Shown here: in pieces, positions 37,908 through 49,090 of the stretch
How positions within the stretch are numbered: the first letter of the stretch is position 1
How the letters are laid out: each line of letters opens with the position of its first letter
Assembly (NCBI GenBank): GCA_015064525.1
Contig: SVSC01000002.1
Span: 1-52,925, forward strand
Length of the DNA: 52,925 nt
Origin: Oscillospiraceae bacterium
Lineage (GTDB): Bacteria; Bacillota; Clostridia; Oscillospirales; CAG-272
Direction of reading: 5' to 3'
Position numbers and translations under genes: made by a program
The notes under the pieces: generated by a model
What the model saw: the letters and a program-made list of their open reading frames with translations, nothing else
Database searches by the model: none
What the model was told of the DNA's origin: nothing

Positions 37908-37955
37908 ATCAAAGCGGTTGCTCCATGCTGAAAAGCATGGAGCAACCGCTTTGAT
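37908..37955. terminator. long perfect hairpin after dat
   Basis: ~21-bp stem atcaaagcggttgctccatgc/gcatggagcaaccgctttgat, loop tgaaaa. The T tract is weak (cttta). Confidence 0.6.
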
Positions 37956-37969
37956 CTTTAGCAATAGGA

Positions 37970-38248
37970 TTATTCGATTTCTATAAACCAACTGATATCA
38001 AGATTCAAAGATTCCGCATCGCAGAAATAGCCTCGATAGCGGAAGGGGTTATACAGCTCAAGCAGATTGGTTTCAAAGGCGCTGTTGCCGCTTACACCTT
38101 GCGCGGTGCAAACGCCCCACACATCATAGCTCATGCTGATGCCCGATTGGTTCAGCATGGTTTCGCTATTGTAGGTATAGGACGAATCCAATCTGCCCGT
38201 GCGGTCGTACTTGTACACCGTTACTTCATCGTTGCGGTGGTCGGTGAC
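37970..38248 (-). pseudogene. rhs relic (orphan C): two fused fragments of the RHS shell, no toxin tip
   Basis: Encodes SVTDHRNDEVTVYKYDRTGRLDSSYTYNSETMLNQSGISMSYD fused to VWGVCTAQGVSGNSAFETNLLELYNPFRYRGYF. These match the main gene around 44285-44420 and 43085-43190. It ends 19 aa later (CDAESLNLDISWFIEIE). Confidence 0.8.
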
Positions 38249-38327
38249 GGAAAGCCACAATATGTAGATCGGCTTGTCCAATGTGCGAACCATCGGGTTC
38301 ACATCCTTTCTTTGTTGTTTCGGCGCT

Positions 38328-38357
38328 CCCCGCGCCGCAATCAACAGCGGCGCGGGG
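38328..38357. repeat. GC-only palindrome, copy C (cassette boundary)
   Basis: CCCCGCGCCGC-aatcaaca-GCGGCGCGGGG, an 11-bp perfect stem. Confidence 0.9.
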
Positions 38358-38389: not shown

Positions 38390-39169
38390 TCATTTTCCTG
38401 TATTTTTGATCATCTTTCGGTTTTTCAATAAAGGATACAAACACCCCAAAAGCCACACGACAAGAAGCCCTATTATGATTCTGTTTATTGACATCATATC
38501 TTCAAATTGCAAAATCGTATTGTAGCTTTGAGTCACAAGCAAAACAGTCATCACAAGAGCAACAATCCAATAAAAAGCATTATCTCTTTTTAGTCTTTTA
38601 ATTAAGTAGGACTGTATTTGATTTGATACTTTCCCGTACTGTTTCACCTCAAATTCGTTCATCAGAAAGCGATTTACATTTTGATGCCAAAAGTATCCCA
38701 CGCCCCACATAATTGAAACCAACGAGACTGTTTTCACAGCACGATCTACATCGCTCCCACCGAAAAAGCCCAAAAAGAATAAGCAAGGAAGTAAAACAGT
38801 TCCCAAACAGATCAAAATCAACGCTGCAAGATCTTCATTTTTCAAATTTTGTATTTTTTTGAAATACTTTTCGCTTGATATTTTTTGTTTTTTTATCTCT
38901 TTGCCCTTCTGCTTTTGGTCAATCCGCAATTGCTCATCATAACTCACCTCGCGGTGACATGAAGGGCAAATATATGAATAAGTAGTCAGTTCATACTGAC
39001 TCATTCCGATATATATCGTACTTCCATGCGTGCTTGAAAAATCCTTGTCTCCCTTTTTTATGAGCCTTGTGCTTTTTTTGATCTTCAATCTCGTGCCGCA
39101 TTTGCCACAGTACATTTTTTTCAACAACATTCCTATTGGCATTTCGGCTTTGGATCCTGTCCATCCCAT
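38390..39169 (-). CDS. zinc-ribbon membrane protein (immunity-gene position of orphan B)
   Basis: ATG 39169 behind GGAGAGGAGG. CGKCG...CPSCH zinc ribbon, Lys-rich linker, then about 4 hydrophobic helices. AT-rich. Confidence 0.65.
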   Translation of the reverse strand: MGWTGSKAEMPIGMLLKKMYCGKCGTRLKIKKSTRLIKKGDKDFSSTHGSTIYIGMSQYELTTYSYICPSCHREVSYDEQLRIDQKQKGKEIKKQKISSEKYFKKIQNLKNEDLAALILICLGTVLLPCLFFLGFFGGSDVDRAVKTVSLVSIMWGVGYFWHQNVNRFLMNEFEVKQYGKVSNQIQSYLIKRLKRDNAFYWIVALVMTVLLVTQSYNTILQFEDMMSINRIIIGLLVVWLLGCLYPLLKNRKMIKNTGK

Positions 39170-39203: not shown

Positions 39204-39495
39204 GAACAAATTATATTTCTTTGAATCGATCTTAGAGATATTGTCTGAATTAAGAAACCTTCCCCACTGAGGATAATAATACCTACTTTGGAGATAATTG
39301 CATTCAATTTCCCAATCATAGAAATATCCACGATAGCGGAAGGGGTTATACGTCTCTACCAAAATCTACTCAAATGCGGAAACACCGCTGGCAACTTCGG
39401 GAGGCGCGCATACGCCCCACGCATCATAGCTCATGCGAATGCCCGATTGGTTCAGCATAGTTTCGCTATCGTAGGTGTAGGACGAATCCAATCTG
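39204..39495 (-). pseudogene. rhs relic (orphan B) with in-frame stop and truncated tip
   Basis: Reads GRLDSSYTYDSETMLNQSGIRMSYDAWGVCAPPEVASGVSAFE-stop(TAG)-ILVETYNPFRYRGYFYDWEIECNYLQSRYYYPQWGRFLNSDNISKIDSKKYNLF. It has the same fragment-fusion junction as orphan C. Confidence 0.75.
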
Positions 39496-39524
39496 CCCGC
39501 ACCGCTGTTGATTGCGGCGCGGGG
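39496..39524. repeat. GC-rich palindrome, copy B (loop inverted relative to copy C)
   Basis: CCCGCACCGC-tgttgatt-GCGGCGCGGG. The loop is the reverse complement of the copy C loop. There is one stem mismatch. Confidence 0.85.
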
Positions 39525-39540: not shown

Positions 39541-40179
39541 TTACGGTTCCGTCACGTGCGTGGACACAGGCTCGGTGATATTGGAAGAGATGGGTGTGGT
39601 TGTAACAGTAGTGCTGTTTGTAGTGGTGGTATCTTCCCCGCGCTCAATTTTCACTTCTTCAAAGTTGAAGAAGGGGAAGTAGGTTGCCATATACTCACCA
39701 AGCGTGATATAGGTGTATGGTTCCCCCACACGTGTTCCAACAGCAAGCAAGACACGATGCTCGTCGGAATAAGCAAAGTATATTCTCATATCGTTATGAT
39801 GTTGATCAGGAGATATGTTTTTTTTGAATACAAATGTTTTGTATGTCTCCGAGTGAATTTCGTCTTCCGGCATATGCTCGAAAAAATATTCTTTGGCTTG
39901 AACATACGTTTCTTCATCATACACCATATAAATCAGTGCTGTTTCATAACGATTGTAAGAATAGGTCATTTTTTTGTGCTGGTCAATATAGTCGTAATCC
40001 CCTCTTTCATACGGAAACATGGTTAAAAAATCCTGCGGAATCAAGGATTGAGTCAATCCGCATTGTGAATGTCCAAGGTGAAAATTTTCAATTCCTTGAG
40101 CCTGATATAAAGTGCAGGATGTCAAGAAAAGACTTATCACCATAGACAAAATCACAAAAATTCTCTTCTTCATGCTCAT
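39541..40179 (-). CDS. lipoprotein, putative immunity protein of orphan A toxin tip
   Basis: MSMKKRIFVILSMVISLFLTSC (lipobox LTSC). It starts 1 nt after the orphan A stop. AT-rich. Confidence 0.6.
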   Translation of the reverse strand: MSMKKRIFVILSMVISLFLTSCTLYQAQGIENFHLGHSQCGLTQSLIPQDFLTMFPYERGDYDYIDQHKKMTYSYNRYETALIYMVYDEETYVQAKEYFFEHMPEDEIHSETYKTFVFKKNISPDQHHNDMRIYFAYSDEHRVLLAVGTRVGEPYTYITLGEYMATYFPFFNFEEVKIERGEDTTTTNSTTVTTTPISSNITEPVSTHVTEP

Positions 40180-40180
40180 A

Positions 40181-41494
40181 TCACCATCCCTTTTCTGCGA
40201 TAAAGCGCGCAGGTAATCTCACATGCCAGCGATCATCAGGGAACGGAATAAACTCTGCTTTCCTACAATCATCCGCAAGCTCACTTAGCACAGGTATCCC
40301 CCGTTTATCAGCCCAACTTAACGCAAACCATCCGTACATATGCAAGGTATACTCTCCGTAATACATCTTAGCATAATCATCGTAATACTTATGTCCCGTT
40401 TCATGTTTTGCGTGTTTCAAGCGATCCCATCTACTTATATACCCCTGATTCACATATGCTGAGACTTCGCCGGATTCATCAAGCCCCGTGGATCCGTCCG
40501 CAAAATAGTAGTATGCTTTATTTACCGCATTGTTCAAAGAACTGTCAACGTTCTTTTTCGTGCGACGCCCTTCTTTTATTGCTTCAGATAGGTTACCGTT
40601 TTCCTCATAAACGCGATCTGCCGCAGCTAAACCTGCCATGGTTGCAATAAAATCAGTTACTACACGAGTAACAATTTCCAAAAACACACCCCAATCCCAT
40701 TCACCGGTAGGATCATACCCCATTACCGGATTATTGCCACAATATGTGAACAAATTATAGGATAAGATTTCACCATCCATTCCCAAATTAGACAAGCCAT
40801 CCGCATTGAGGAATCTACACCATTCGGGATTATAATACCTGCTTTGGAGATAGTAGTATTTTGTTTCCGCATCGTAGAAGTAGCCTCTGTAGCGGAAGGG
40901 GTTATACAACTCAAGCAGATTGGTTTCAAAGGCGCTGTTTCCGCTTACACCTTGCGCGTTGCAAACGCCCCACGCATCATAGGTGTAGGCGCCGATCTTT
41001 CTGCCGGTCGAATCGTAAATGGCAACAATATCACCCTGCAAATTCTTTTCGAAGAAATAGCAACTGAAGGTTTGGGCGGGATCGGTTGATTTTCTGTACT
41101 TGATGCCTATGGGTGCCCCCGTTTCATCATAGACGAACAGCATCAAATGCTCGACATCTCTACGAACCCACTTTTGCCCTATCACCTGACTGCCGTTGAG
41201 AATATACTCATAGGTGGTCCCTTGGGCGGTCTTGCTTGTGCGGATGCCATCGGCGTTGTAGGTGAAGATGCATTCATCGGAGCTTTCATAGTACTCGCCG
41301 TACTCCGAAAAGTAGCAGTACCACATGGAAACAAGCTGTCTGCCTTCCCATTCAAACACGTAGCCCGCGCCGCTGTAGTAATCGGGATCATAATAGCCCA
41401 TGAAAATGGGGTTTCCGATCTCGTCGTAGATGATCTCATCTCCGTTGTAGATGGTTAAAAGATCGCCCCAACCGGTGGGATCACCAACAACCAA
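40181..41494 (-). CDS. orphan RHS C-terminal cassette A (shell end plus alternative toxin tip; no own start signal)
   Basis: 266 aa are near-identical to the main RHS C-terminal shell through YYYLQSRYYNPEWCRFLNADG. This is followed by NNPVMGYDPTGEW and a distinct 171-aa tip containing HETGH. The track start is TTG without an SD. Confidence 0.8.
   Translation of the reverse strand: MVVGDPTGWGDLLTIYNGDEIIYDEIGNPIFMGYYDPDYYSGAGYVFEWEGRQLVSMWYCYFSEYGEYYESSDECIFTYNADGIRTSKTAQGTTYEYILNGSQVIGQKWVRRDVEHLMLFVYDETGAPIGIKYRKSTDPAQTFSCYFFEKNLQGDIVAIYDSTGRKIGAYTYDAWGVCNAQGVSGNSAFETNLLELYNPFRYRGYFYDAETKYYYLQSRYYNPEWCRFLNADGLSNLGMDGEILSYNLFTYCGNNPVMGYDPTGEWDWGVFLEIVTRVVTDFIATMAGLAAADRVYEENGNLSEAIKEGRRTKKNVDSSLNNAVNKAYYYFADGSTGLDESGEVSAYVNQGYISRWDRLKHAKHETGHKYYDDYAKMYYGEYTLHMYGWFALSWADKRGIPVLSELADDCRKAEFIPFPDDRWHVRLPARFIAEKGW
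40795..41485. repeat. direct repeat of main rhs 43000-43690 (offset 2205 nt)
   Basis: 41147-41485 is identical to 43352-43690, shown by identical 103-aa and 85-aa antisense ORFs in the track. 40795-41146 carries scattered substitutions. Confidence 0.9.
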
Positions 41495-41532
41495 TCACAA
41501 AAAGCAGATTGGCTTGTCCTTTTTTCGGGGTT

Positions 41533-41558
41533 CCCCGCGCCGCCGAAGCGGCGCGGGG
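41533..41558. repeat. GC-only palindrome, copy A (cassette boundary)
   Basis: CCCCGCGCCGC-cgaa-GCGGCGCGGGG, 6 nt after the ankyrin gene stop. Confidence 0.9.
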
Positions 41559-41564
41559 GAAAGT

Positions 41565-42401
41565 TTAAGCTTGTTGCTTCAGTAGATCCGCGATCTCGGT
41601 ATGACCTCTTTCCACGGCGTAGTCGTAGGCGGTTTTGCCATATTTATCCTGAACATCCGGTTGCGCACCGTTCTCCAACAGCAATCTAACAATACGAATA
41701 TCTGCATGGGTCCTTTGAACCGCACAAATCAAAATCGTATCTGAATACCAACGATATTGATCTACATCAATTGAGTACATTTGAAACAGAATTTCCATGG
41801 ATGCTACATCTCTGAGCATTTCATTAAGCAAGCCGGCAAAGTCATAGGTTTCCGGATCAATACCGGAGAGCATCTTTTTTAATAAAGCTTCTCCTGAAGA
41901 TCTATCTGTCTCGCCCACCATTCCCGCAACACAAGCCCCCATGGCATCAAAAATACCGTTAGAGCTACGTTGCAACGTGACATCAGCGCCATTTTGAAGC
42001 AAAACTTCTGCTATTTGATACTTGCTTTCGTGGGTAGTTAGTAAACAAATGATCAAAGGAGTTTGGGTTAGCATTGGTTCTTGGAAGTTTACATCTGCCC
42101 CCTTGGAAATCAATAGCTCAACCATTTCCAAATTTCCGCTCGAACAAGCCGCACATAGCGGATTAAAGCTATAGGAACCCCAAACATCCAATATGGTCAA
42201 TAACCATGCAGGAAGAAAAGTTGGAATCTCATCGATCGCTTCGGGATATTTTTCTATCAGACGCTCGACTTCTGATATATCATCTTTCTGTACGGCCTTT
42301 ACAATTTGCCTTGAATGATATACATCCGAGCAAAGGAACGACACTGTGATTCCTATGAACAGGAGCACAACAACAGCTACCAACAAGAGTTTTTTTCTCA
42401 T
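41565..42401 (-). CDS. membrane-anchored ankyrin-repeat protein, putative cognate immunity of the main RHS toxin
   Basis: ATG 42401 overlaps the rhs stop (ATGA) and follows GGAGG. Signal anchor MRKKLLLVAVVVLLFIGITVSF. Ankyrin repeats (NPLCAACSSGNLEMVELLISKGADVN, TPLIICLL...AEVLLQNGADV, TILICAVQRTHADIRIVRLLLENGAQPD, KTAYDYAVERGHTEIADLL). Confidence 0.75.
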   Translation of the reverse strand: MRKKLLLVAVVVLLFIGITVSFLCSDVYHSRQIVKAVQKDDISEVERLIEKYPEAIDEIPTFLPAWLLTILDVWGSYSFNPLCAACSSGNLEMVELLISKGADVNFQEPMLTQTPLIICLLTTHESKYQIAEVLLQNGADVTLQRSSNGIFDAMGACVAGMVGETDRSSGEALLKKMLSGIDPETYDFAGLLNEMLRDVASMEILFQMYSIDVDQYRWYSDTILICAVQRTHADIRIVRLLLENGAQPDVQDKYGKTAYDYAVERGHTEIADLLKQQA

Positions 42402-45400
42402 GCAAATACCTCCTCGCACCACTTAATCGGATAGTTTATAAGCGGCCCGGGATCTTCATCATTGTTTCCAAAGATAAAATACGGAATCACATCAACAAAG
42501 GTATGCCCGATCAACCCTACAATTCCATCAGCATTGACAAAATTATAGGTGCCTATATCACGCGCATCAGTTACAAGCTCCCCACCGGATCCATAGACTC
42601 CTTCTTGACCGTTGCGCCACGTAACCTTTTTGTTTCGTTTCTCACCGGCAGAAAATTGATGGAAATCATCCTTAACATTTGGGATAATGTCATCCTTATT
42701 GGTTTGCTCAGCAGTACTGAGATCATTGGGTACACCTTCATTTTTTGCAGCACGAACATCATAATGCCAAGTTTGAACTGCAAGCGCAGTGGTTGCAACT
42801 GTTGCGACTTTCCATGCAACACAAGTTAATGCCACATTTCCAGTTACAAGTCCTACACCGCAAGCCAACAGAGCACCAACCGCAACAGCCTCGGTAATCC
42901 ATCTAGGCCATGTTCCCTGTGAATCCGATTGATTGATAGGATCATTATTACAATATGCAAACATATTGTAGCTCAAGAGCCCTTGCCCTGTGCTTACATA
43001 TCCATCCGCATTGAGGAATCTGCACCATTCGGGATTATAGTACCTACTTTGGAGATAGTAGTATTTTGTTTCCGCATCGTAGAAGTAGCCTCTGTAGCGG
43101 AAGGGGTTATACAACTCAACCAGATTGGTTTCAAAGGCGCTGTTTCCGCTTACACCTTGCGCGGTGCAAACGCCCCAAGCATTATAGGTGTAGGTGCCGA
43201 TCTTTCTGCCGGTCGAATCGTAAACGGCAACAATATCCCCTTGCAGATTCTTCTCAAAGAAATAGCAATCAAACACATCTGCGGTATAATCGGATGTACG
43301 GTATTTAATACCGATGGGAGCGCCCATTTCGTCATAGACGAACAGCATCAAATGCTCGACATCTCTACGAACCCACTTTTGCCCTATCACCTGACTGCCG
43401 TTGAGAATATACTCATAGGTGGTCCCTTGGGCGGTCTTGCTTGTGCGGATGCCATCGGCGTTGTAGGTGAAGATGCATTCATCGGAGCTTTCATAGTACT
43501 CGCCGTACTCCGAAAAGTAGCAGTACCACATGGAAACAAGCTGTCTGCCTTCCCATTCAAACACGTAGCCCGCGCCGCTGTAGTAATCGGGATCATAATA
43601 GCCCATGAAAATGGGGTTTCCGATCTCGTCGTAGATGATCTCATCTCCGTTGTAGATGGTTAAAAGATCGCCCCAACCGGTGGAATCACCATAAAGGAAC
43701 ATGGAGTAATCCTGCGCTGAGCCAAGGGCTCCGGTAGTGAACGCATACTGCTTCTTTTCCAGTATATTCCCTGCGTTGTCGTAAATATACTCATAGCTGC
43801 AGTTCAACGGACGATTATCCTCGCGGATCAGCTGACCGAGGTTATCATACGCATACCGATACTGCACCACGCCGTTGGAATCGGTGATCTGCGTGATGTT
43901 ACCGCGGGAATCGTAGGTATAGTTATAGGTAGTAGCGGAAAGCACCGATGTGCCTGCCCCCACACGGATCTCGCTGGTCACTTGGGAGACCAAATGGGTG
44001 AGCTTATAGCCGTCATCAATCAGATACTCATAATTTACGTAGTTGTAGAAAGCATCCGCGTCGGAGGCGTTGAGATCAATGGTTTTATAGTCGGTTCTGC
44101 CGAACACGTCGTACTGCGGGTTGATGGTTCCCGTGATCCCGTCACCCGAAAGAGACACACGCTCCAGGTAGCCTGTTTCGTTACCGTAGGAATAATAGTA
44201 ATAGCTATCCGCACTGTAGTCGTCCCCATGGTAGTTTCCCGTGGGGCAGGCATAATCCACGCTTTGAGAAAGCCACACCAGCCGAGAGGATTCATCATAG
44301 CTCATGCGGATGCCCGATTGGTTCAGCATGGTTTCGCTATTGTAGGTATAGGAGGTGTCAAATCTTCCCGCGCGGTCGTACTTGTACACCGTTACTTCAT
44401 CGTTGCGGTGGTCGGTGACCGACGAAAGGTTGCCGCGAGAATCGTAGGCATAGGAGTAAACGGTTTCATAAGCGCCGTTTACACCTGTATTATAGCAGAT
44501 TTCTTCCACTCTGTCAAGCATATCGTACAAATATTTTACGCTTAATCCGTTTCCATAGTTCAAAACGCTTAATTTTCCGTTGTTTGCGTTGTACTCGTAG
44601 CTTGCCAGCTCATATCCACCAACGGTGACTCCCGTTGTGTTGCCGAAGGCATCGTAGGCGAAGAAATAGCTTGAGGATTCGGTGTAAATTCCCGTAAGCC
44701 GCTGGGTGACGGCATCGTAGTCGTAGTCCACCGACGCACTGTTGGTGACCTGACTATAGCTGTAGATTGGCTGGTCGGTGTTGGGATCGGTGGTGACTGT
44801 GAGCCTTGCGGGCAGCGTATGCACCAGATTCCCAATGGCGTCGTACTCATAATAAACGCCGTTGTTATCGGGTGTGGTTGCCGAGGCGATCAGCCGCCCG
44901 TTCTTTTCGTTGCGGAAATACAGCGTGACGTTGGAGCGGGTGTCCTCCTCCAAATATACCGCTCCAAAAATATGCGGAGAGTTGGAAAGATAATATTCTG
45001 TACGCTGATTGAACTGCTGATTGGTTCCATCGCTATTTTGCGTAACGGTGTTCGTTAGCAAACCATAGTCATCATAGGCGTAGGTTGTGAAATACATCTC
45101 CTGAATGTCATTTTCCGAAATGCTGTTAGGATTATAGATTCTGCCGCGCACATACCGCTTGGTGCGCTCACAAATAACACGGTTATTGGAATCATATTCG
45201 TATTCCATCACGGTTCCGCCGGAGGAAGCCGAACGAATCACGTTGTGATTTCCATCGTAAGCATTCCAAGCCCGATTATGCCCCGACATGGAGCTTGCAA
45301 GATAGCCATACTCATTGTAGCTATAAACAGCGGAGCCTGTGGAATCCACCACAAGAGAAATGTTATCGAAGGATCCCACCCCGGGGTTTTTGAGATACAG

Positions 45401-48400
45401 AAGCTTCACCGTGATGGTATCCACAATTCCTTTGCCCGGATCGGTTACAAAGGTGTTGCTCATGAACTGCCAATCGGTGATTTCCTTGTTGAAATGGAAG
45501 GTGTGGGTTTCGGTTGGCGCATCGGAGGTGCCGTTATAATACTTTACAATCACCTCAATGCCGAACACACTGCTTTCCGATTGACTTTGCGCCGTTCCCT
45601 TTGCAAAGCCGGACAGCGTGAAGAGAATCGGATCCCATTCCGCATAGAAATCATTGTCGTAATTCTGCTTTCGATCATTGTTTGCAACCGCAATTTGCTG
45701 TTGCGGAATCACGGAGGAGGTGAGGCTTTGAGAAACACGCAACACGTTACCGAACACGCCGATACCGGAGGCTCCCACAGAAACCGCGTTGGTGTTCACA
45801 TTGCTCCAAACCGAAGAAGGATTCGCTCCCGTGGTTTCAAAATGACCCATTTCGAGCATATCATACTCGGCAGTTCCCGTTGTTTTGGATAGCATGAGGT
45901 TACCCACTTCCACAACAATTTCTTGCGCAGGTGATCCCGTTACCACAACGGAAATTTTGTAGGTCTCGTTGCCTCCCGAAGCAGGCACAGTGAAATCCAG
46001 ATTTGCGAAAACGGTGGTAACGGTGGCGTAATATTCATTTACGGGAACCTCTTTCACAAAGCGATTCTGTGAATTGGTTACCGATTCGGCCTTCAAATAA
46101 ATCTGTGCCCCCTCGGCTTCAAACGTATTCACCACCATGGAAAGCGAATAGGTTCCTTCGCTGAGCGCAACATTTTGATAAATGGAAGAAGAATTCACAT
46201 TTTGATTTACCTTCAACTCTGCCCAGGAATGGCCGACATCATATCTATCCACAAGTAAGGTAGCAATACGGCGCACGGAGCCCGTGGTTTGCCAAACGTT
46301 CAACGTGGAGCCTGTATATTGCTCAAACCCACCGTTAAGCAGATAATTGGAGGAGCTTTGGGTGGTTTGCACCGAGGATTTGAGGTTGTTTTTCGCTTTT
46401 TCGTTTTCCTCGCCCACGTACTGTCCGCTTGAAGCGCCGTAGAGTCTTGTTCCATCGCTGTCGGTTGTGTAGCAGCTAACGGTTCTGCCCTCGTAGTCGA
46501 ACACGTAGGTGGTGCGAAGATCATCGTCGATGCCGCTGTAGTCCGAGGCTTCGGGATCGTCTAACACGTCGTTGGAGCCGCTTGTGGTGATCACGGTGCT
46601 GTCGGTGTTGTATTCGATCCCAATCTGCTGGCCGCTTACGTATCTCGTGCCGTTGTATGCCGACTCGGCAACGTTGATCACGCGGTTGTAGTGATCCAGC
46701 GTGTAATACAAACGGTAGCCGGTCATACCGTTTTTCACGGAATAGAGATAGCCGTTGGAATCGTAGGAATAGTCGGCAACGGCATCCACCACGAGACTGC
46801 CGTGGTTGGCGTTGGCATTGGTGTTGTAGAACGCCAGCAGCTCCGACTGGGTGAGGGTGGACTCGGTGCTCTTATGCAGGCGCACCGTTTGACGGAGATA
46901 GTTGCTGCCCGAGGTGGAAATGCTACCCGTTGGCGTTGCGGAATGGCGGAAGATCACCGCCTCGCCCGAGGTGGGATTCCACACCGCGTAGAGCAGGTAG
47001 TTGCTGTCGTACGCCAGCTTTAGCTGCTCGATGGGGGTGGTGGAGTCATTGGGATAGAGGTTGACGCCGATCGGGCGCGGACCGTAGTCGAAGGTGAACA
47101 CCACGCGGTTGCCGCTCCGATCCTCGATGGAGGTGAGATACCAGCCCGAAACCGTTCCCGCCGGCGTGCCGCCAAGATTGGTGAAATGCCGCACAGTCTC
47201 GCTTGAATCGGTAATGGTGACGGCGGTGTTTGTTTTGGCAAGGGTGAGGAGAAGACCGTCCTCATCGTCGTAGTACTTGACGTTATCCACTTCTTCACGA
47301 AGCAGGAAATAATGCTCGGTGCCGTCGGCATCCGCCCAGATCATGTAGGTGCCGATGGAGCCGTCCTTCTTCACGTAGTTCTTTTCCAGAACGGTTTCAT
47401 GAATGTTCTGCTTGAAGCCAATGGCAACGTCCGAGCCCCAATAAGAGGTTTGCACGTTGGGATACTGATATTTTTGCCCTGCCATGGAGGAATTGTAGAT
47501 CACAGTGGGCGTGTAGGGCATGAGGGCATCGGTGGAGGTGAGGGTTGGAATGGCAAACACCAAATTGCCTGTTGCGTGGTTCACCGAGCCTGCTCCCGCA
47601 AAGCCCGCGCTTTGGGAGGAATACGTCCAATAATCCTCCAGCCCCTTCATGTCTCTATACTCGATGCAAAGCACGGGACGCTCACTCACAGTGGCGCTAT
47701 CGTTGGAGCAAAAGATCGCGTCACCTACAGCAATGGTATCGGTGGCGGGGCCGAACATCATGCCGTAGTTTACGCCTGTGTACCATTTTTTCACGATGGG
47801 AGTGATATTCCATGTACAAGTGATATCCTTTGGAATATAGGTTTCTATATTGTCTCTGTAGACGGTTTCCACGTGGAAAAAATCGGTATAATTTGCCGCG
47901 GGCTTCCCCATGGAATTGGAGGTTGCCACCGTGTTGTTCCAGTTCAGGTATTGATCCCACGAGCTTGTGACGTCATACACAGCCACGTACTGAGAGACCT
48001 CCTCTGAGCTGACACACCGCATGGAGAAGGTGGCGTTGGTGATATAGGCGGAGCTCGGAAGGGTTGGCAGCGTGTTCATCCTCCAATATGTCCGCCAATG
48101 GGTGCCAACTGTCAGCTCGGCGCCGCTGAGATAGGTGGTGGTGGGCTCGGTGTAGTGAATGGAAAGATCCAGAATTGAGGAGTTATTGATCGAATAAATG
48201 GGTGGGTCGATGGTAACGGGATATGCCCGCTCGGTGTCATTCATCCATTCGCGGTCTGCGGTAATGGTAATGGTGTAGCTACCGTTACCGTGATCGACCA
48301 GCGACATGGCTACAGCTTCGGAGGTAACACCCGCTGCGTCCACAACGGTGGGGGCGGGAATTTGATAGAGCGGCGCCATGGTTTCGGGATTTGCCAGCAG

Positions 48401-49090
48401 AATGCCGCCATCCTCCGAGGCAACGGCAATCAGATTATTTAGGGAAAGGGCGAAGGCATAGGAATAGTCTTCGCCACGTGCTTTCACAATAATGTTCTCT
48501 TTGATATGCAGTCCGTTCAGAACGTACTCCAAATCAACGTTTTCCAAAATATCTTTGTATTGAACAGTTGCGCAAAGATTTTCCAAAAAGGTCATCTTTT
48601 GCAGCTCGGTCATTTCGGATTCGTCCTCCGCAGGTGCAAGAATCTCTCCGCGCACCTTCTTTTGGGCGCCGATCAGAGAAAGCTCCAGCTTGCGGTTGGC
48701 ATCATGCAGGGTGAACAAGCTTCCGCTTCCACCCGTTTTCTTTACAAACTTGACGCGAGCGTTGGAGGTGGTGATTTCACTTCCCTCCACTTGCAGGCGG
48801 TTGTCGATCTCCTTCCAATCGCCGTTTTCGTCGAGTGCGTGAACGGGAGACTCATATTGCGCCAGATAGTAGGAGCCGTTCTCCAAACGGAAGGTTTTGG
48901 AATCGGCGGTTCTCAGCTCGGTGAGCTCCATGATCTCCTCGGACTCCGCCGAGAGGGCCTCCCCACCGTTTTGGGCAAGGGCTTGCCGAATATCCTCGGC
49001 AAACACAGAAAGGGGCAAGGAAAGCAACACCAACAGAAGGGATAAAAAGACAGACAATGTTTTCACGGATAACTTCCTGATTTTTTTCAT
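42398..49090 (-). CDS. RHS/YD-repeat polymorphic toxin with Sec signal peptide
   Basis: Signal peptide MKKIRKLSVKTLSVFLSLLLVLLSLPLSVFA. Many YD repeats. RHS core end YYYLQSRYYNPEWCRFLNADG plus PINQSDSQGTW. 169-aa variable tip. GGAG SD. Confidence 0.9.
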   Translation of the reverse strand: MKKIRKLSVKTLSVFLSLLLVLLSLPLSVFAEDIRQALAQNGGEALSAESEEIMELTELRTADSKTFRLENGSYYLAQYESPVHALDENGDWKEIDNRLQVEGSEITTSNARVKFVKKTGGSGSLFTLHDANRKLELSLIGAQKKVRGEILAPAEDESEMTELQKMTFLENLCATVQYKDILENVDLEYVLNGLHIKENIIVKARGEDYSYAFALSLNNLIAVASEDGGILLANPETMAPLYQIPAPTVVDAAGVTSEAVAMSLVDHGNGSYTITITADREWMNDTERAYPVTIDPPIYSINNSSILDLSIHYTEPTTTYLSGAELTVGTHWRTYWRMNTLPTLPSSAYITNATFSMRCVSSEEVSQYVAVYDVTSSWDQYLNWNNTVATSNSMGKPAANYTDFFHVETVYRDNIETYIPKDITCTWNITPIVKKWYTGVNYGMMFGPATDTIAVGDAIFCSNDSATVSERPVLCIEYRDMKGLEDYWTYSSQSAGFAGAGSVNHATGNLVFAIPTLTSTDALMPYTPTVIYNSSMAGQKYQYPNVQTSYWGSDVAIGFKQNIHETVLEKNYVKKDGSIGTYMIWADADGTEHYFLLREEVDNVKYYDDEDGLLLTLAKTNTAVTITDSSETVRHFTNLGGTPAGTVSGWYLTSIEDRSGNRVVFTFDYGPRPIGVNLYPNDSTTPIEQLKLAYDSNYLLYAVWNPTSGEAVIFRHSATPTGSISTSGSNYLRQTVRLHKSTESTLTQSELLAFYNTNANANHGSLVVDAVADYSYDSNGYLYSVKNGMTGYRLYYTLDHYNRVINVAESAYNGTRYVSGQQIGIEYNTDSTVITTSGSNDVLDDPEASDYSGIDDDLRTTYVFDYEGRTVSCYTTDSDGTRLYGASSGQYVGEENEKAKNNLKSSVQTTQSSSNYLLNGGFEQYTGSTLNVWQTTGSVRRIATLLVDRYDVGHSWAELKVNQNVNSSSIYQNVALSEGTYSLSMVVNTFEAEGAQIYLKAESVTNSQNRFVKEVPVNEYYATVTTVFANLDFTVPASGGNETYKISVVVTGSPAQEIVVEVGNLMLSKTTGTAEYDMLEMGHFETTGANPSSVWSNVNTNAVSVGASGIGVFGNVLRVSQSLTSSVIPQQQIAVANNDRKQNYDNDFYAEWDPILFTLSGFAKGTAQSQSESSVFGIEVIVKYYNGTSDAPTETHTFHFNKEITDWQFMSNTFVTDPGKGIVDTITVKLLYLKNPGVGSFDNISLVVDSTGSAVYSYNEYGYLASSMSGHNRAWNAYDGNHNVIRSASSGGTVMEYEYDSNNRVICERTKRYVRGRIYNPNSISENDIQEMYFTTYAYDDYGLLTNTVTQNSDGTNQQFNQRTEYYLSNSPHIFGAVYLEEDTRSNVTLYFRNEKNGRLIASATTPDNNGVYYEYDAIGNLVHTLPARLTVTTDPNTDQPIYSYSQVTNSASVDYDYDAVTQRLTGIYTESSSYFFAYDAFGNTTGVTVGGYELASYEYNANNGKLSVLNYGNGLSVKYLYDMLDRVEEICYNTGVNGAYETVYSYAYDSRGNLSSVTDHRNDEVTVYKYDRAGRFDTSYTYNSETMLNQSGIRMSYDESSRLVWLSQSVDYACPTGNYHGDDYSADSYYYYSYGNETGYLERVSLSGDGITGTINPQYDVFGRTDYKTIDLNASDADAFYNYVNYEYLIDDGYKLTHLVSQVTSEIRVGAGTSVLSATTYNYTYDSRGNITQITDSNGVVQYRYAYDNLGQLIREDNRPLNCSYEYIYDNAGNILEKKQYAFTTGALGSAQDYSMFLYGDSTGWGDLLTIYNGDEIIYDEIGNPIFMGYYDPDYYSGAGYVFEWEGRQLVSMWYCYFSEYGEYYESSDECIFTYNADGIRTSKTAQGTTYEYILNGSQVIGQKWVRRDVEHLMLFVYDEMGAPIGIKYRTSDYTADVFDCYFFEKNLQGDIVAVYDSTGRKIGTYTYNAWGVCTAQGVSGNSAFETNLVELYNPFRYRGYFYDAETKYYYLQSRYYNPEWCRFLNADGYVSTGQGLLSYNMFAYCNNDPINQSDSQGTWPRWITEAVAVGALLACGVGLVTGNVALTCVAWKVATVATTALAVQTWHYDVRAAKNEGVPNDLSTAEQTNKDDIIPNVKDDFHQFSAGEKRNKKVTWRNGQEGVYGSGGELVTDARDIGTYNFVNADGIVGLIGHTFVDVIPYFIFGNNDEDPGPLINYPIKWCEEVFA

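Follow-up and report, generated by a model that had tools for sequence, protein, structure and literature searches.

The rhs array of an Oscillospiraceae bacterium raises the question of why a piece of an rhs gene without a usual start should lie, with an uninterrupted reading frame, behind a complete rhs gene and the gene of its immunity protein. The array is located in the window analysed here, i.e. the whole stretch of 52,925 nucleotides (nt) given by positions 1 to 52,925 of contig SVSC01000002.1 (assembly GCA_015064525.1), which comes from a metagenome-assembled genome (MAG) that is 82% complete and consists of 149 contigs. The piece in question, orphan A, encodes the end of an RHS shell and a toxin tip, and is followed by a lipoprotein gene; both had been noticed in an earlier reading of the letters alone, hereafter the original prediction. 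With a probability of roughly 70%, orphan A is an untranslated cassette which, together with a cognate immunity gene, forms a reserve behind an expressed, Sec-exported Rhs protein and its ankyrin-repeat immunity protein. The genes concerned are the following (aa, amino acids; SD, Shine-Dalgarno sequence; ORF, open reading frame).

42398-49090, minus strand: main rhs gene, encoding an RHS/YD protein of 2230 aa with a signal peptide; strong SD (AAAGGAG)
41565-42401, minus strand: ankyrin-repeat membrane protein, the immunity protein of the main tip; its start overlaps the rhs stop (ATGA), strong SD (GAGGAGG)
41495-41564, minus strand: inter-cassette spacer of 70 nt, with a GC hairpin and the leader AGGACAAGCCAATCT
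40181-41494, minus strand: orphan A (P0001), a rhs C-terminal ORF of 437 aa made up of a shell end (233 aa), a divergent core end and a toxin tip
39541-40179, minus strand: lipoprotein immunity candidate (P0002), 212 aa, with lipobox LTSC

The ORF 40181-41494 is a 5'-truncated orphan rhs C-terminal cassette, as originally proposed. It carries the RHS repeat-associated core domain TIGR03696 at aa 172-264 (NCBIfam; E 3.7e-17, 62.6 bits with a cut-off of 32.5), and follows the full-length rhs gene and its immunity gene on the same strand. The core ends at NNPVMGYDPTGEW (40697-40735), which includes the cleavage-type motif DPTGEW, while that of the main protein ends at its own DSQGTW (NCBIfam). 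Compared with the 2230 aa of the main Rhs, the N-terminal delivery region is missing. The shell end had been described as 266 near-identical aa; this is true of 233 aa, which are 93% identical to main residues 1798-2030, but the next 33 aa, up to DPTGEW, show just a loose similarity to the main protein. The absence of an ATG start and of an SD was confirmed: the ORF begins with TTG at 41494, directly preceded by an in-frame TGA, its first ATG is codon 32, which is common to the main gene, and no convincing SD was found before the TTG or before internal starts near the tip. Orphan A is thus probably untranslated in place, a part of the reading to which the estimate given above applies as a whole.

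The arrangement is not an artefact of MAG assembly, since each of the orphan's two unique junctions is crossed by independent contigs of several runs and studies. These contigs were found among public Logan contigs, which have a depth of 2-6x and of which few are longer than the 352-nt repeat described below. The junction of ankyrin gene, hairpin and orphan is spanned in runs X3 (41216-41604), X6 (41362-41512) and X13 (41074-41387), and that of shell and tip in runs X2 (40628-40837 and 40812-40962) and X5 (40767-40954). It might be supposed that the 3' ends of one rhs gene from two strains were joined in tandem, given the completeness and contig number of the MAG and the exact repeats, which invite mis-joins; the crossing contigs make this hardly credible, as does the main-plus-orphans architecture shared by congeners. 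RHS shells occur in 13 of the 41 genomes of the genus, several of them with between one and three orphans following the main gene.

The relation of orphan A to the main gene is best seen in the nucleotide sequence, where the shared part has the following structure.

43002-43692, minus strand: partner repeat within the main rhs gene, from a constant-offset alignment
41127-41478, minus strand: perfect tract of 352 nt, equal to 43332-43683 in the main gene and the probable substrate for crossover or gene conversion
40797-41126, minus strand: diverged section of the common shell end, 65% identical in a 77-nt patch and 95% in the next 253 nt
40697-40796, minus strand: cassette-specific RHS core end, up to DPTGEW, without nucleotide homology to the main gene

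The orphan (40797-41487) and the main gene (43002-43692) align over 691 nt; the offset is 2205 nt throughout, a multiple of three (735 codons), so that the homology is in frame. Read from the 5' end of the orphan, 41487-41480 match, 41479 is a mismatch, and all 352 positions from 41478 to 41127 are identical; the identity then falls to 65% over the 77 nt of 41126-41050, where the changes are clustered and mostly in third positions, and returns to 95% over the 253 nt of 41049-40797. The base-for-base identity originally claimed for 41147-41485 therefore refers to a real tract, but one that is slightly longer than stated and has other limits, the interval itself matching at 338 of 339 positions with the mismatch at 41479. 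The end of homology after RFLNADG (40796-40816) was found as predicted, identity being at the random level below 40796 (24/97). Across the whole 699-nt repeat the codon differences are 21 synonymous and 17 non-synonymous. The perfect tract is not attributable to chance, since at the 5% divergence of its flank the probability of 352 straight matches is about 1e-8 by our own arithmetic. It appears to record a recent exchange between main gene and orphan, since in five related arrays the longest exact repeats between the two measure only 40-162 nt. Its sequence thus fits recent gene conversion, which had already been suggested, or recombination between the copies.

The second component of the cassette is the lipoprotein gene. 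As had been noted, it starts 1 nt past the TGA of orphan A and has a lipobox, LTSC; the SD of this gene is weak. The signal sequence of P0002, MSMKKRIFVILSMVISLFLTSC, was judged by inspection, using the pattern [LVI][ASTVI][GAS]C at the end of the signal peptide. Besides the window, ten loci with the tip family were inspected, namely L004-L007 in species genomes, L024-L028 in metagenomes and one in congener G331. The gene after the tip is a P0002 homologue in nine of the ten, or 10/11 counting the window (BLASTP E 1e-45 to 4e-7), and the exception, L026, has a different lipoprotein-like gene in this place. Nearly all homologues have a cysteine after the signal helix, a comparable one being present in P0107, L004, L005, L006, G331, L024, L025, L027 and L028. 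In three cases the tip and the lipoprotein occupy the main slot of a full-length Rhs (L004, at least 2129 aa; L026, at least 1488 aa; G331, 2177 aa), which indicates that the pair works as a module elsewhere. The G331 locus (L023, G331:C5:1-9000) belongs to the same genus; its tip is about 45% and its lipoprotein 47% identical to those of the window, and a 779-aa orphan with another tip follows.

By this sequence context P0002 is a well-supported immunity candidate, in agreement with the role first suggested for it. Its model (predicted local distance difference test score, pLDDT, 77) consists of an alpha+beta domain and a disordered tail rich in Thr, Ser and Pro. Scans of Pfam, NCBIfam and PHROGs gave nothing for P0002, and neither a profile search of the PDB with the immunity alignment nor Foldseek of the P0002 model against the PDB revealed a structural relative.

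The toxin tip itself is represented by two features.

40184-40696, minus strand: toxin tip of 171 aa (aa 267-437), a member of an unannotated all-helical Rhs C-terminal (Rhs-CT) family
40391-40405, minus strand: HETGH, a chance HExxH string found in 1 of 97 homologues

Both the 171-aa tip, unlike that of the main protein, and the HETGH string are present as originally described, and a profile of the tip found the main tip to be unrelated. An exhaustive HMMER search with the 171 aa against 1.84 billion representatives yielded a family of 102 clusters. Its conserved part, tip residues 52-162, is always at the C-terminus, and nine of ten long members contain RHS repeats. E381 (40352-40354) and H385 (40340-40342) are invariant. 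Together with these, the invariant or near-invariant residues (ORF numbering) are N322, N325, Y328, Y329, Y347, R355, W356, R358, L359, K363, Y371, E381, Y382, H385 and W389, every one of which is retained in the window's copy. A word-indexed homologue search with the tip returned only the tip itself, and its profile found no further match in 300 genomes of the same family, congener G331 surfacing later through a search with the shell.

The original prediction took HETGH for the signature of a zincin, recommended comparison with Tox-MPTase and other zincin families, and made the idea depend on conservation of the string among homologues. HExxH occurs in 1 of the 97 aligned homologues, namely in the window's own sequence alone; the family has K, Q, S or A in the place of the first His and E, D or S in that of the last, and the main-slot homologue of G331 reads AQTKE. 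The AlphaFold2 model of the tip, built on a 37-sequence alignment, has seven helices and no strand (pLDDT 91.4; predicted template modelling score 0.81), no zincin match was obtained for profile or fold, and no peptidase matches were found in Pfam, NCBIfam or the PDB, even at E<=10. A metallopeptidase using HETGH, for which the string at 40391-40405 speaks, is thus extremely improbable, and this candidate was rejected on account of the 1/97 conservation, the wholly helical model without a beta sheet and the lack of any further conserved zinc ligand. With the zincin toxin domains (Tox-MPTase etc.) the family shares only this five-residue string, in the window's tip alone, whereas it differs in its all-alpha fold and in the lack of conservation of the motif.

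Scans of Pfam, NCBIfam and PHROGs with the tip also gave nothing, and a PDB profile search with the tip alignment gave nothing meaningful. With Foldseek, no match reached E<0.01 or a template modelling score (TM) >0.35, either for the tip model in the PDB (best E 1.0, TM<0.3) and BFVD or for the P0002 model in the PDB. The tip family is therefore one that is unlisted in curated databases, with a confidently predicted fold that has no relatives among solved structures.

In most homologues about 50 hydrophobic residues, rich in Gly, Ala and Val, lie between the DPxGxW motif and the conserved domain; their mean Kyte-Doolittle value is +0.6 to +1.8 in most homologues, and they are modelled as a helical hairpin. 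Such a hairpin, combined with an immunity protein predicted to be anchored on the membrane's outer side, suggests a toxin that attacks the membrane or envelope from the exterior. The tip might be released by cleavage at DPTGEW, after which the N-terminal hairpin would engage the target membrane and the conserved domain would damage the target, the invariant Glu and His and a cluster of Arg, Lys, Asn, Tyr and Trp possibly forming an active or ligand-binding site. The all-helical toxin would then act on the outer membrane face or the envelope of monoderm targets, and the lipid-anchored immunity protein would block it outside the cell. An envelope-acting toxin neutralised outside the membrane by the lipoprotein is the most likely mechanism.

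How might a silent tip of this kind be put to use? A crossover within the shared tract would give a chimeric Rhs of 2234 aa displaying tip A, at the cost of the main tip and the ankyrin gene, which would both be deleted. That tips are switched here through homologous recombination may fairly be inferred by analogy, the layout being that of orphan rhs-CT/rhsI arrays in Salmonella and E. coli (PMC3150448). In Salmonella Typhimurium LT2 (STM0291/STM0292) a full-length rhs gene with its immunity gene is likewise followed by a 5'-truncated rhs-CT with an immunity gene of its own (PMC3967940). Experiments in that strain showed recombination across 522 bp that are 95% identical; the main gene thereby acquires the tip of the orphan, in most cases once a duplication has kept the main immunity gene in place (PMC3967940). 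The homology of the window is 691 bp with a 352-bp perfect tract, compared with the 522 bp at 95% of LT2, and in both arrays the predicted chimera deletes the main immunity gene; a crossover would probably be tolerated only after duplication of the locus, as in Salmonella. The window differs from LT2 in a Gram-positive-type, Sec-exported Rhs without a type VI secretion system, in an exported lipoprotein as the immunity protein, and in two further relics.

Before any switch, the selectable function would be that of the lipoprotein, protecting the cell against neighbours that deploy the tip A family. The protein probably has such protective value, because a congener deploys this family from its main gene. 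Its gene would be transcribed by read-through extending to the terminator at 37909-37954, which closes the remaining part of the array.

39243-39500: relic orphan B, short and stop-containing, from tblastn of the main protein against the window
38390-39169, minus strand: ORF of 259 aa with a zinc ribbon and membrane helices, having weak Pfam zinc-ribbon matches only
38009-38251: relic orphan C, short and stop-containing, from the same tblastn search
37909-37954, minus strand: intrinsic terminator directly after relic orphan C, with a 20-bp stem and a T-rich tail

The tblastn search with the main protein recovered orphan A and these two downstream relics. The promoter scan of the array gave a signal no better than chance, and the sole strong terminator of the array is that after the last relic, so that the array probably forms a single read-through unit. 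The tips and immunity genes have a GC content of 0.37-0.44, compared with 0.51 for the shell, which is usual for exchanged modules. In both relics, main residues ~1557-1599 are fused directly to ~1957-2029, i.e. they share one common internal deletion, and relic B carries an in-frame stop. The 259-aa ORF has the lowest GC content in the array (0.365) and occupies the place where the immunity gene of orphan B would be expected.

The main rival explanation, which we regard as unlikely, is that orphan A is a displaced former C-terminus in which only the lipoprotein is under selection, the silent toxin decaying and never returning to the main gene. The truncated, stop-containing orphans B and C accord with it, as do the in-frame stop and missing SD at the 5' end of orphan A and the deployment of the tip family by the congener's main gene, which would make immunity useful by itself. 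It is harder to reconcile with an intact frame of 437 aa in which all invariant and near-invariant residues of the family are kept, with a 352-nt perfect tract indicative of ongoing exchange with the main gene, and with a lipoprotein start placed 1 nt from the stop of an untranslated toxin and served by a weak SD only.

Against the reading of orphan A as a usable reserve stand several points. The decay of B and C shows that orphans in this array can simply rot. The 2205-nt deletion junction joining the main gene to tip A, which the original prediction had suggested looking for, was found in none of 12 runs, a search underpowered by short contigs at 2-6x depth that cannot cross an exact repeat of 352 nt; the missing recombinants are also in line with a relic kept for immunity. 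One contig of run X4 (628 nt, depth 3.6) does join the 5' flank of the orphan and the tract (41529..41127) to the continuation of the main gene (43331..43107). It is a weak hint, since such a junction would arise if an unequal crossover had duplicated the segment or if conversion had extended further; at 3.6x across an exact repeat, the contig may equally be a chimera of de Bruijn assembly. Further joints (42338/40823), separated by some 9 letters, were set aside as brief stretches with 90% likeness that come from other rhs genes. As to expression, a metatranscriptome contig of run X11 equals 41221-41536 exactly (316 nt), running from the spacer into the orphan, and hints weakly at read-through transcription or a processed RNA; it could be contaminating DNA, and neither tip nor lipoprotein was found in the RNA runs. 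The fold and profile searches of the tip yield no biochemical activity, and its toxicity and target, like the immunity, are proposals from context. Finally, the window's hairpin is much less hydrophobic than in most homologues (mean Kyte-Doolittle -0.16). As the nearest relatives, including the main-slot copy of G331, share this low hydrophobicity, we read it as a trait of the subfamily rather than as decay.

Possible transcription across the 5' end of the orphan would also suit another explanation, in which the producer cell itself synthesises the tip from an internal start and restrains it with the immunity protein, as in a toxin-antitoxin module; there is a precedent in a Salmonella orphan Rhs (PMC7043789). 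This is very unlikely here, where the promoter signal is at chance level, no start near the tip has a convincing SD, and an exported lipoprotein would be in the wrong compartment for a cytoplasmic toxin. The untranslated reserve cassette with its cognate immunity gene thus remains the preferred reading.

The spacers of the array contain a further element, whose copies and leader are listed below.

41533-41558, minus strand: GC hairpin with an 11-bp stem and no U-tract, in the spacer after the ankyrin gene
41506-41520, minus strand: leader AGGACAAGCCAATCT, common to orphan C
39496-39523, minus strand: GC hairpin copy after the lipoprotein gene, abutting relic orphan B
38328-38357, in the window: GC palindrome copy

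The same 11-bp GC palindrome stands after each immunity-type gene of the array, with its loop in either orientation; all three copies are in the array and none elsewhere in the genome. The X11 contig ends at the 3' foot of the GC hairpin. Congener G311 (locus L020, G311:C3:174395-181458) has a different palindrome in five copies, all inside its rhs array, so that the stem is species-specific, and most copies have no U-tract. L027, a metagenome contig that is unrelated but encodes the same tip and lipoprotein, contains an almost identical hairpin. The leader after the palindrome is GGACAAGCC in the window and GGACAAGCC or GGCAAACC in G311, i.e. of the form GGGGAA[GC]CCC...AAGGACAAGCC in both species, and abuts orphans that start at different shell positions. 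In relic B the rhs-coding AGRLD follows immediately upon the 3' arm of the palindrome, suggesting that the two were joined by microhomology. One further near-match to the leader, CGGACAAGCCGATCT, occurs elsewhere in the genome on a different contig (G000:C36:41954-41968) and may be due to chance, a control pattern having 1 match. Two orphans of G311 (L020 7734-9098 and 9497-10840) start at the shell position of orphan A (residues 267/268 of a 501-aa probe), and the 5' boundaries of orphans may cluster at preferred sites. Because most copies lack a U-tract, the palindrome may serve to delimit or exchange cassettes and not simply to terminate transcription.

Similar modules are known from other bacteria. 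In E. coli, Dickeya and others, orphan cdiA-CT/cdiI and rhs-CT/rhsI modules have been described (PMC3150448), and a cassette recombination model was proposed for polymorphic toxins (PMC3482391). The window shares with these the promoterless tandem CT/immunity modules that keep a conserved piece upstream of the tip, and the lower GC content of tip and immunity gene. It differs from these modules in a boundary that lies about 33 aa upstream of the DPxG motif, not at it, and in the array-specific GC palindromes between the cassettes.

Among monoderm bacteria, WapA/WapI of Bacillus subtilis is a Sec-dependent YD/Rhs polymorphic toxin with its immunity gene downstream, the WapA tips being tRNases and the immunity cytoplasmic. 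The window is alike in Sec dependence, YD/Rhs scaffold and downstream immunity gene, whereas its immunity protein is an extracytoplasmic lipoprotein and its tip is all-helical with a membrane-type hairpin. Immunity at the outer face is known from outside-acting systems of Firmicutes, such as TelC-TipC, where the toxin is a lipid II phosphatase (LXG, type VII secretion system), and the LanI lipoproteins such as NisI. The window resembles these in the anchoring of its immunity protein at the outer face, which implies action on the envelope; no sequence or fold similarity to them was detected, and the delivery scaffold differs.

Thus, the layout of an orphan Rhs-CT with its immunity gene is known, and what is new is an undescribed toxin-immunity pair in a Sec-type Rhs of gut Clostridia. 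A more far-reaching possibility, which we consider quite doubtful, is that the tips form a new fold class of envelope-acting Rhs toxins and that the GC palindromes are sites of cassette exchange, not mere terminators. If true, the new class would be defined by an all-helical domain with an invariant Glu and His, an inserting hairpin rich in Gly and Ala, and a dedicated lipoprotein family that blocks it extracellularly. Orphan Rhs arrays have been well documented among Gram-negative bacteria, and this locus would extend the logic of the reserve cassette to the Sec-exported Rhs proteins of gut Clostridia. With its long perfect tract it offers a good natural case for measuring tip switching, and the pair may help to explain how Rhs toxins damage the envelopes of monoderms from outside, the targets for mutation being E381 and H385 rather than HETGH.

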